This document shows positions 57,001-59,956 of a DNA stretch of 59,956 bases, piece by piece. The DNA comes from a virus (lineage: Duplodnaviria; Caudoviricetes). Position numbers: made by a program. The DNA lies in the IMG/VR virus record IMGVR_UViG_3300049141_000020, positions 1-59,956 of that record; one strand, given 5' to 3'. The first letter of the stretch is position 1. Every line of letters begins with the position of its first letter.

Positions 57001-59956
57001 CTCCTCACCAGCCGTCTTCACCTGAGAGGGAGTCTCAGCCATGTGGACGAGGTGGGCGATCACCAGAGGCGGGACGCAGGAGACAGCCACCACCAGGGCC
57101 GCGGAGGTTCCCATGTAGTTCTGCTCGATCAGGTGAGAAATCGACTGGGCAGACATAGCCAGCGCGAGAGCCATGACGGCCCCGATGAGAGCCGTCCTCT
57201 CACCGTGCAGCTGCATCTTGCGGCGGTACCAAGAGATGGCGCCAGCCGCGAGAGCGTAGACGGAGAGACAGACCGGCATGGCGGGCGCGTACTTCTCACT
57301 CCACCCAGCGGTGCGAGCCAAGGCGATCTCACCGGGGATGGACATATACAGCGCCGCCACGACAGCGGCCGGGATGGCGACGTACAGAACAGCCGCGATG
57401 TACCAGGGCACAGCTCTAGACATGAGAGTCCTCTCTGATGTGCTCGGGGGTTGACTTAGAGGCCGGCGCCGATGAAGGCGACGGCACGGTCCATCTCGGC
57501 CTTGCAGTTGCGGCAGACGCCGCCGCCCTGGTGGCCGAGAGGGAAGATCACTTCACAGCCCTCGCACCGAGCCCGCTTGACGGGCCGGGAGGGTTGCTGA
57601 GGGATGACGGATCTGACCGGGGTGAAGTGCTTCAGCCGGTGAGAGATCAGGCCCGGAACAGAGTCGATCTGCTCGGGCAAGGCATCGGTGAGGCATCGAA
57701 GGATCTCGTCGCTTCGGTAGTCCTCGCGTAGCCACGGCACCACCTTGGGGGCCAGGCGCGCGATCTCCTGGTCCGTGAGAGGCAGGCTCTTGTGCAGGCT
57801 CAGCCGCTCAAGGATGCGGCGGCCCTCGCGGGCCATCTCGCGGCCGATCTTGTGCAGGAAGGTGGACTCTCCCACCCCACCCTTCTCGGCGCCCTCAGGT
57901 GCGAGCGGAGCCGGGTCTTCAGCCTGGCTCGGGGGTGGGGTGGTGTCTTTCTTGCACTCTGTCTTTCTCCCTATGGGAGAGCCGCCGACGGCCCGACCAC
58001 TCGTTTCGCCGACCGTCGGGAACCGGTCAGTCGGAGAGGTCGCAGCGTCAGGGGTGTCCGTGACAGAGGTGAGGGTTACCCACTGCTTGGTCTCCGGGTC
58101 CTGCACCTTGGCACGCTTGACGTAGCCAGCCGCAATCAGCTCGTTCATGGCGTTGGAGACAGAGCGCCGGCCGTTGGAGACCTGAGTGGTGATCTTCTCG
58201 ACCGTCGCCCCGGTGCCGTCAGGCAGAGAGAGCAGACGCGTCAGGAGGCCCACAGCCTCAAGAGAGAGGCTGGCATGCCTCGCGATGGTGTTCGGGATCT
58301 GGACGAAGCCAGACCTCAGCTTGCTACGCTGCACGCGCATCGAAGACCCGCTCTTCGGTGTCGGACCCCGGAGTGTTCCCGCACTGCCGGGGTCAATTTT
58401 TGATGCCTAGGTTGATTCCGTTAGGTTGAATCCGTTAGGACCGTAGCATGATCGCTGCGGGTCTGGTCAAGCGGTTCTGTGCACGGAGTCCCCGGAGCTG
58501 GGGACGAACAGACCCTCGCGGCGCTTCGCGCCGGCCCTCGATCGGGTGAGTCGAACCGAGCCAGTGGCGGGCTGTCAGTGAGGTGTGGCAGAGTCTTTGT
58601 CAGCCGGGTAGCCCGCTTCCCCGCCGATGCGGGGGTGTTCCAGCTTGCTACTCGCAGTTGTCCCCGCCGACGCGGGGGTGTCTCCGCGCAAGCGGAGGTG
58701 GATCGCAACGCAAGGCTTCGCGCTAGCGGAGATGAGACGGAAGCCCCCCGGCCTAGCAGCACGGGGGGCCTTCTGCTTTTCCGGCCTGGCTCGTCTGAGA
58801 CACACAAGAGGCCCCCTCCGAGAGGAGGGGGCCTTCTTCGTGCAGGTCAGAGCGCTACAGAGAGAGTGAACGGATATGCAACACGGGAGAACTGGACCGA
58901 AGGGACCGATGCCGAAGGGCATGCGGATGCCGAGGGGCGGCGGGCCGAAGGCTCGCTGACAACCCGCACACCACATGAGTGAAGGGGCGGCCGGAGTGAT
59001 CCGGCCGCCCCTTCACTCATGGTCCGTTCGTCCGTGTCAGATTCGGCGTCCGTGTCAGATGCGGACCTCGACCGTGCCCGCCAGCCGGTCGTGCAGGCCC
59101 CGGCCGTCGCGGTCCCAGATCAGGGCGGGGATCGCGAGGAAGAGCAGGACCGTGCGCAGCACCGCGCGCCACGGGCTGACGCGGCCGGTGTCCAGGGCGA
59201 GCACCCGCAGGCCGAGGAGCCGCTTGCCCGGCGTGAAGCCGACCGTACCGACCGTGAGCACCATCAGGGCGAACATGATGAGCGGTGCCCAGATCTGGGC
59301 CGCTTCGTTGTAGCTCTGGGTGATGAGACCGTATGCGATCAGGAGGCTCAGGCCCCAGTCCACGGCGAGGGCGCCGAGCCGCCGCCCCGGGCGGGCGATC
59401 GAGCCGGGTCCCTCCTCGGGCAGACCGAGCTGCTCGCCCCGGTATCCGAAGTCGACACCGGCCTCTTCCGCGGCCGCGCGGGGCCCGGAAAGCCACGATC
59501 CGAGTGCTTGCCTGTTGTCCACCCGTCCACGGTACTGCGCCCGTAAATGACCAGGGCACGGCGGGGTGCGTCGGGGCTACGGTGGAAGGTGAGCCGGTTA
59601 ACTTGTGCGAAACAAATGAGTCACGCCCGAGAAACCACCCGTCCCTAGGGTCGAGGTCAGCGTGTGCCACCCGCACTGGCCGCACGAACGAACTACCACC
59701 CCGGCGGGACGGTCGGGAGTAGGAGGAGCTGGATGTTCCAGAACGCCGACGAGGCCAAGAAGTTCATCGCGGACGAGGACGTCAAGTTCATCGACGTCCG
59801 CTTCTGCGACCTGCCGGGCGTGATGCAGCACTTCACGGTGCCTGCCGAGGCGTTCGACGCGGACGAGGAGCTGGCCTTCGACGGCTCGTCCATCCGCGGC
59901 TTCCAGGCCATCCACGAGTCCGACATGGCGCTGCGCGCGGACCTGTCGACCGCCCG

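Follow-up and report, generated by a model that had tools for sequence, protein, structure and literature searches.

Since 2023, phages have been described to turn CRISPR imitations against the CRISPR-associated (Cas) proteins of their hosts, and the cassette considered here is a fresh example of a principle that is already known. It lies close to one end of IMG/VR virus record IMGVR_UViG_3300049141_000020 (Duplodnaviria; Caudoviricetes), a stretch of 59,956 bases rated 100% complete, which was analysed at its full length and is referred to as the window. A sequence-only reading had pointed there to a phage-borne mini-array of the type I-E kind, with a 14-nucleotide (nt) spacer and no cas genes, near the right attachment site, attR. 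Among the closest described systems, as far as the available text of the sources goes, the solitary-repeat RNA anti-CRISPRs (Racrs) include two that were validated against type I-E, RacrIE1 and RacrIE2 (Camara-Wilpert et al. 2023, PMC10651486). Viral CRISPR-like regulatory anti-CRISPR RNAs (Cracrs), including a type I-E array of a Salmonella enterica prophage, vie with the host for its Cas proteins and send these to cas promoters instead, and one I-E array has been validated (Liu et al., bioRxiv 10.1101/2024.10.29.618823). Regulatory mini-arrays occur in prophages (Shmakov et al., bioRxiv 10.1101/2023.03.03.530964). In E. coli, CRISPR RNAs (crRNAs) with shortened spacers assemble Cascade with fewer Cas7 subunits and recognise their targets; those with 14-nt spacers support priming of adaptation and not interference, while spacers longer than 20 nt interfere as well (Kuznedelov et al. 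2016, PMC5159557).

We favour, with moderate confidence, the reading that the cassette encodes an anti-CRISPR RNA that is viral, resembles crRNA and falls in the Racr/Cracr class. Host Cas6e would cut from it a 43-nt mini-crRNA along with spacer-less hairpins, and these would engage Cas6e, Cas5 and Cas7 belonging to two I-E repeat families in short complexes that do not cut. The parts of the cassette, in order, are as follows.

58572-58594, plus strand: promoter-like motif CTGTCAGTG-N6-TGGCAGAGT, conserved ahead of other viral arrays
58614-58642, plus strand: R1, a type I-E repeat-like unit, CGCTT-CCCCGC-CGAT-GCGGGG-GTGTTCCA, with the 8-nt handle GTGTTCCA
58643-58656, plus strand: 14-nt spacer-like sequence (psi-spacer) GCTTGCTACTCGCA, conserved in position in other records
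58657-58685, plus strand: R2, a type I-E repeat-like unit, GTTGT-CCCCGC-CGAC-GCGGGG-GTGTCTCC
58677-58705 (hairpin from 58682), plus strand: U3, a repeat-like unit of a second I-E family, GGTGT, then CTCCGC-GCAA-GCGGAG, then the handle GTGGATCG
58711-58739 (hairpin from 58716), plus strand: U4, a weaker repeat-like hairpin, CAAGG, then CTTCGC-GCTA-GCGGAG, then ATGAGACG
58738-58782, plus strand: terminator-like GC hairpin followed by CTGCTTTTCC, seen in the predicted fold and missed by a simple terminator scan
58808-58840, no strand assigned: a further two-way terminator-like hairpin, past the cassette and ahead of attR, found on both strands by the terminator scan

In a repeat search, R1 and R2 appear as a 21-nt direct repeat of 95% identity at 43-nt spacing, and their stem-loop, CCCCGC-N4-GCGGGG, is found at these two places only in the window (reversed control, 0). 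The U3 hairpin begins 4 nt past that of R2, the final 4 nt of R2 being at the same time its beginning, and U4 is a direct repeat of U3 (84% over 19 nt). Thus, what had been taken for a two-repeat mini-array consists of four hairpins from two repeat families, stacked within about 125 nt; the two downstream hairpins, the conserved upstream motif and the conservation of the 14 nt in other phages had all been absent from the sequence-only reading.

The description of R1 and R2 as diverged I-E repeats of about 29 nt around a 14-nt sequence stands. Each agrees with the canonical Streptomyces I-E repeat GTCCTCCCCGCCGACGCGGGGGTGTTCCG at 24 of 29 positions, the runner-up 29-mer in the window reaches 20 and the maximum in 50 Markov-simulated windows is 21, so that the repeat pair is real and far above chance. 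Both have the 29-nt layout of GC stem, 4-nt loop and 8-nt handle, with the 20-nt core CCCCGCCGAYGCGGGGGTGT exact. This core occurs at no fewer than 120 loci when one genome is taken per prokaryote species; among the matches listed, nearly all are from Streptomyces, and dozens of Streptomyces genomes carry arrays of 61-nt period with the exact core. The nearest host relative (G001), whose flanks of the attachment (att) site are 96.7-98.4% identical to the window, possesses a full I-E cas operon, with cas3, cas8e and the downstream genes, and two arrays. The repeats of these two arrays differ in the loop alone, CGAC as opposed to CGAT, which are the loops of R2 and R1, respectively. R1 matches the array-2 repeat at 25/29 and R2 the array-1 repeat at 24/29, so the comparison with host repeats that the sequence-only reading had proposed came out in its favour.

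Two Streptomyces I-E repeat families are concerned, the GTGTTCCG family and the GTGGTCCG family. By manual count, U3 agrees at 23/29 with GTGCTCTCCGCGCGAGCGGAGGTGGTCCG, the ordinary repeat of several Streptomyces I-E loci, and U4 at 18/29 with the second repeat family; because of the resemblance of U3, a single transcript would hold mimics of both families. The U3 type of hairpin with the handle GTGGACCG is also the first repeat of host mini-arrays resembling the regulator CreR, which are described below. The CTCCGC hairpin was considered as a hallmark of these CreR-like elements and set aside, given that it is also the ordinary repeat of the second Streptomyces I-E family. The locus is set apart from a bona fide CRISPR array by its 43-nt period, diverging repeat flanks, an upstream motif unlike that of the host and the lack of I-E cas genes. 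The earlier statement that there are no cas genes holds for type I-E, none being found in the window among 55 open reading frames (ORFs) compared with Pfam and 77 compared with PADLOC; the sole Cas-named PADLOC match is a weak, Cas4-like one to a PD-(D/E)XK nuclease.

Because host homology stops at 123 and resumes only at 58896/58897, the mini-array belongs to the phage and lies some 210 nt inward of attR, within a complete prophage of the serine-integrase type. These limits come from blastn comparison with 80 Streptomyces RDD-glnA loci, which places host DNA at 1-123 and from 58896/58897 on, and which bears out the proposed closeness to attR. In the empty site the two host-homology ends overlap, and an imperfect 14-nt att core, CCGAAGGG(G/A)CCGAT, is present at both junctions. 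The best-matching RDD-glnA locus is that of S. coeruleofuscus JCM 4358, with identities of 96.7% across 1075 nt and 98.4% across 123 nt. The two cores at the edges of host homology are the following.

110-123: attL core CCGAAGGGGCCGAT, partner of the attR core
58897-58910, no strand assigned: attR core CCGAAGGGACCGAT

The cassette recurs in other phages. A scan of viral contigs for the hairpin with GTGT returned 92 loci, many of which, at 68-72% G+C, carry several degenerate I-E-like units at non-canonical spacing. The 14-nt psi-spacer is found at the same place in seven other Streptomyces phage or prophage records, with a period of 43 nt (44 in L224).

L246, viral contig: GCTTGCTACTTGCA
L499, S. 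flaveolus JCM 4032: GCTTGCTACTTGCA
L224, viral contig: GCTTGCTACTTGTA
L287, viral contig: GCTTGGTACTCGAA
L232 (the same as L372), Streptomyces sp. MH60: GCTTGGTACTTCGA
L247, viral contig: GCTTGGTATTCCGA
L245, viral contig: GTTCAGTACTTCGA

Positions 1-10 of the psi-spacer are less variable than the 8-nt handle that precedes them and nearly invariant in six lineages; position 6 is C or G, position 12 is G or C, and positions 11 and 13 are variable too. Because it is conserved at the same position across records, the 14-nt sequence is a conserved element and not an acquired spacer, which revises the name first given to it. Its surroundings are kept as well. The motif [CT]TGTCAG[TC]G-N5-12-G[CG]CA[TG]AGT stands 15-45 nt before the first repeat in L204, L224, L245, L246, L285, L293 and L294, with variants in L499 and L511, and is dissimilar to host CRISPR leaders. 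On the 3' side, a module of hairpin, GTGGATCG and (C/A)AACG is retained in L224, L232, L247, L257, L204 and L511; the order onward, a further hairpin and then a terminator, is likewise common to related arrays, and a hairpin with a T-run closes the arrays of L204, L224, L232, L246 and L511 as it does in the window. The helix-turn-helix (HTH) gene that neighbours the cassette was not found in five other array-bearing records, some of them incomplete, and the cassette therefore moves between phages. Most likely, a temperate Streptomyces siphophage carries it as an accessory gene at its attP-proximal end.

The length of the psi-spacer belongs to a series. Among 61 unique psi-spacers from 30 small virus-borne arrays, 7 measure 14 nt, 15 measure 20 nt, 15 measure 32 nt, 7 measure 33 nt and 17 have other lengths, in a census whose loci were chosen via one repeat pattern, which includes related sequences, and which used a hairpin finder of our own making that wrongly joined the window's R2-U4 stretch into a 25-nt "spacer". 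Adjacent repeats in host genome arrays have a period of 61 nt in 1312 of 1589 cases and of 43 or 49 nt in none of the 1589. Lengths of 14, 20 and 32 nt all equal 6n+2, in keeping with a step of 6 nt for each Cas7, a pattern suggestive of selection on the stoichiometry of Cascade; 14 nt is the shortest guide length shown to work in E. coli Cascade.

In a family of viral arrays with 20-nt spacers (AGCCTCAGGGGCGTGCACAA-like; L232, L246, L209, L237, L290 and L257), a conserved AGGGGC can pair with GCCCC of the preceding handle. L237 is changed on both pairing sides (handle GCCCT, spacer AGGGC), and for this reason a handle-spacer hairpin is suggested for this family by sequence comparison.

The favoured reading, an anti-CRISPR RNA, can be put as a series of predicted steps. 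The motif at 58572-58594 may be read as an extended -10 element (TGnCAGAGT) with a transcript start near 58601, from which a transcript of about 185 nt would run to the terminator at 58738-58782. In a type I-E host, Cas6e would cleave R1 and R2 at the foot of their hairpins, on the 3' side, and the product would be a 43-nt mini-crRNA in which the 8-nt handle GUGUUCCA is followed by the 14-nt psi-spacer and then by a 21-nt hairpin. This RNA would nucleate a shortened Cascade, with Cas5 on the handle, three Cas7 rather than six, and Cas6e on the hairpin, which could recognise DNA without triggering interference. The spacer-less U3 and U4, mimics of the second I-E family, would bind more Cas6e. 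Overall, host crRNAs would lose Cas6e and Cascade subunits to these phage RNAs and the prophage or an infecting phage would be protected, and the conserved 14-nt sequence probably doubles as a guide. If so, RNA-based anti-CRISPR and Cas-hijacking elements now extend to temperate Streptomyces phages, and the cassette is a compact natural test case, with one 43-nt RNA, a minimal 14-nt guide and an identifiable I-E-positive host relative. It bears on how phages tune decoy against guide functions, and could inform short-guide, non-cutting Cascade tools for Streptomyces.

Compared with Cracrs, as they are presented in the available text, the cassette has the same unit of repeat, spacer-like sequence and repeat on a virus outside CRISPR-cas loci. 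It likewise belongs to type I-E and a prophage, its degenerate repeats enclose a short spacer-like sequence in one stacked transcription unit, and its psi-spacer is below normal spacer length (here 14 against 32 nt), which implies fewer backbone subunits. Moreover, L283/L294, relatives of the window's cassette, carry a psi-spacer that matches the target of a host CreR-like element. On the other hand, the defining share of at least 9 PAM-proximal bases (PAM, protospacer-adjacent motif) with host CreR/CreA, or a match to its PAM-flanked target at a cas or creT promoter, was not found for the window's psi-spacer; this failed match lowers the case for Cracr membership, albeit in a small sample. 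The psi-spacer of CracrIE1 is 24 nt rather than 14 nt long, the host here is Streptomyces while the available text of Liu et al. mentions Actinomycetota but does not mention Streptomyces at all, and the window's cassette joins repeats of two I-E families. With Racrs, the cassette shares phage-encoded repeat mimics 3' of a predicted promoter without cas genes, U3 and U4 resemble spacer-less solitary repeats, and by analogy with the published account aberrant complexes via Cas6 and Cas7 binding may be expected. It differs in that a Racr repeat, as defined in the portion of that account available, is unassociated with other repeats, whereas four units are stacked here and one pair surrounds a conserved 14 nt. 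Host CreR/CreA mini-arrays, again according to the text at hand, have the same layout of degenerate repeat, spacer-like sequence and repeat and use the guide over part of its length; they differ in lying between cas3 and cas8e with a psi-spacer of about 32 nt and a nearby AAG-flanked target, whereas the present element is in a prophage, has 14 nt and gave no target. Finally, the engineered short-spacer crRNAs of E. coli provide the geometry, 14 being 32 minus 18 nt and hence three Cas7 fewer; those described in the accessible part of the report (PMC5159557) are laboratory constructs, while the window's cassette would be the same geometry occurring naturally in Streptomyces phages, known from sequence.

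The proposal of the sequence-only reading, that a short crRNA mimic sequesters or redirects Cascade, agrees with the prophage site, the promoter-like motif, the terminator and the recurrent virus-borne family, and its redirection part gained no target. Besides the selection of loci and the finder error in the spacer census, several points weigh against an anti-CRISPR RNA. Transcription, processing, Cascade loading and the anti-CRISPR effect are all steps that we infer. The promoter role is likewise deduced, purely from the conservation of the motif, because a generic scan for the sigma-70 consensus found no promoter. Rfam has no matching family, and nothing near threshold, over 58600-58740; its scan of 56000-59956 gave 17 weak matches, with none at the gathering score and none to CRISPR repeat families. 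The handles of R1 and R2 deviate from that of the host, R1 ending in A instead of G and R2 having GTGTCTCC. Of the five nearest host relatives only 2 have Cas8e, as do 35 of the 201 Streptomyces genomes that were sampled, and two sequenced lysogens with the same unit as the window (G206 and G207) gave no Cas8e match. Many hosts of such phages therefore lack the I-E system. In addition, a pure decoy leaves the conservation of the 14 nt unexplained, yet no target was found.

A bolder proposal, which we put forward tentatively and consider doubtful, is that Streptomyces phages swap a modular, promoter-driven cassette whose guide length changes in steps of one Cas7, and that the 14-nt guide programmes a three-Cas7 mini-Cascade as a natural CRISPR interference (CRISPRi) device against a conserved site, across two I-E repeat families from one transcript.

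Somewhat less probable still, and in our view unlikely, is a Cracr-type guide in the strict sense, in which the 43-nt RNA would chiefly bring a shortened Cascade that does not cut to a site flanked by a PAM, for instance a cas promoter or some other defence or regulatory promoter of the host, for repression, with Cas titration being secondary. The near invariance of the first 10 nt of the psi-spacer over six lineages is in its favour, together with the C/G switch at position 6, which is unpaired in Cascade, and the G/C at position 12. Host elements offer a precedent. At 6 of 30 cas8e loci fetched, which were taken from the 35 Cas8e-positive genomes, a CreR-like mini-array lies upstream of cas8e on the opposite strand (L472-L475, L477 and L488, equal to sites in L516-L519, L521 and L532), in which CTCCGC-N4-GCGGAG and GTGGACCG precede a spacer of roughly 32 nt, itself followed by a CCCCGC hairpin. 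Five of the six spacers match, over their first 16-17 nt, a site close by that is flanked by AAG, the mismatches being at position 6 or 12, and by their sequences these elements resemble guides through which the cas operon represses itself. The part that pairs with the target in these host elements is equalled by the lengths of 14 and 20 nt, and viral Cracr psi-spacers are shorter than those of host regulators in the available text of bioRxiv 10.1101/2024.10.29.618823. For one psi-spacer of L283/L294, the match is to the AAG-flanked site targeted by a CreR-like element of a host, and 2 of the 14 paired positions are mismatched; about 0.5 such matches would be expected by chance anywhere, and the observed one falls exactly on a known target site. 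L294 also has the promoter-like motif. Because of this match, genuine imitations of host Cas regulators are, judged by sequence, among the members of the cassette family. A solitary matching hairpin in G001 (G001:C8) was set aside as an ordinary terminator.

What argues against the strict guide is the search for a target of the window's own psi-spacer. No AAG-flanked match with at most 2 mismatches in 12 paired positions was present in 34 cas neighbourhoods (228 kb, extending as far as 6 kb upstream of cas8e), in the cas locus of G001, where the best site is 11/14 and within cas8e, or in the prophage; the window holds no other site of 12/14 or better, its best being 11/14 without a usable PAM. 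AAG with the seed AAGGCTTGNTACT occurs in 5 of 201 Streptomyces genomes, not in excess over a reversed control and in unrelated contexts, one of them adjoining a periplasmic-binding-protein gene, and none of the five is among the 35 genomes with Cas8e. The psi-spacer matches none of the six CreR-like elements of the examined cas8e loci, a small sample, or their targets. A first whole-collection genome scan for the unit gave mostly chance matches among the matches listed; a sharper one gave 4 loci, of which 2 are Streptomyces prophage-type arrays and the sole ones in array context, and no host CreR-like element with the psi-spacer. Furthermore, positions 11 and 13 vary, and a small ACU-N3-AGU hairpin might instead have positions 11-13 as its loop. 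Two candidate sites were rejected. An rpsF-ssb intergenic site, GCTTGCTACTCGAA, matches at 13/14 and is conserved in the five nearest host relatives; its flank is GCT or CTT, and chance would give about three matches of this kind in each genome. Also dropped was a conserved Streptomyces site upstream of a proline-rich gene, since the search pattern had forced the match.

It is quite improbable that the locus has no Cas-related function and is either a decaying fragment of a captured array or a set of GC hairpins acting as terminator or insulator where the prophage ends. R1 and R2 have indeed diverged from each other in both flanks, the place between the divergent gene and attR is an expected terminator zone where two terminator-like hairpins follow, and some lysogens with the unit lack I-E. 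A remnant, however, would not retain the 14-nt spacer, the promoter-like motif and the 3' module in at least seven unrelated phage or prophage records while the flanks diverge. The stems and the first handle bases are exactly preserved, a 43-nt period has no counterpart among host array periods, and two repeat families are joined in fixed order.

A short identity was noted at the junction of handle and spacer, where 11 nt, CAGCTTGCTAC, at 58641-58651 equal 58317-58327, antisense to codons 5-8 of the adjacent gene at 57456-58340; the Streptomyces phage Ponzi has GCTTGGTAC at the equivalent codons. This identity is probably due to chance. Least probable of all is that the short RNA, as a Cascade guide or an antisense RNA, is directed at related phages (superinfection exclusion) or at an early gene of its own phage, the one for the DNA-binding protein: virus-borne mini-arrays against other viruses are known, as far as the available text of bioRxiv 10.1101/2023.03.03.530964 goes, and the 11-nt match and its Ponzi equivalent would suit self-regulation, but only 10 of 14 spacer positions are matched with a TCA or CAT flank in place of AAG, an 11-nt match in 60 kb has a chance of about 0.1 by our own estimate, the gene was not found in five other records with the same psi-spacer, the window offers no site with at most 2 mismatches and a usable PAM, and the motif is not in excess over control in the whole records of five related phages.

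With respect to its neighbourhood, the gene order in Ponzi is DNA-binding protein, variable slot, serine integrase and dCMP deaminase, and the cassette therefore occupies the slot beside attP. The same slot has different content or is empty in the relatives L202 and L204 and in Ponzi. A conserved stretch lies 3' of the divergent DNA-binding-protein gene, and the cassette begins after it.

58426-58541, plus strand: conserved non-coding stretch with GGACCGTAGCATGATC and two GC hairpins, 77.6% identical to Ponzi and common to L202 and L204

At 58408-58455, a tandem 14-nt repeat, TAGGTTGA(T/A)TCCGT in two copies, is followed by GGACCGTAGCATGATC, which is kept in relatives and in Ponzi; the repeat may be an operator or promoter region between the DNA-binding-protein gene and the cassette.

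The Pfam profile of the 55 ORFs is that of a siphophage, with a serine recombinase at 48-2180, DNA polymerase A, ThyX, ribonucleotide reductase, terminase, portal, tail genes, an endolysin and two Lsr2-like genes; the final two genes of the window, RDD and glnA, are host-derived. The longest reading frame of the serine integrase (48-2180, minus strand) crosses attL into host DNA, and its C-terminal part (residues 562-637) has a sub-threshold match to DUF4096 (IS4/5 transposase). The phage sits in the 3' end of a host gene, conserved and located upstream of RDD-glnA, and the final codons of this gene are thereby replaced. The Lsr2-like genes are at 38584-38967 and 44315-44719, both on the minus strand, one having dimerisation and DNA-binding domains and the other DNA binding only, and five phage tRNA genes (Asn, Glu, Met, Ala and Lys) are clustered at 17121-17699. 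The nuclease with the weak Cas4-like match (E 9e-9) is among the genes at 14455-15258, 39032-39829 and 39866-41434, all on the minus strand, a list that also contains an SspD-like protein and a DUF6884/DpdC-like protein; these last two may be encoded by DNA-modification genes of the phage. In the host DNA between the insertion site and RDD, a perfect 22-nt inverted repeat with a 4-nt loop at 58974-59021 is probably a host two-way terminator, and it accounts for weak Rfam small-RNA look-alikes at that place.

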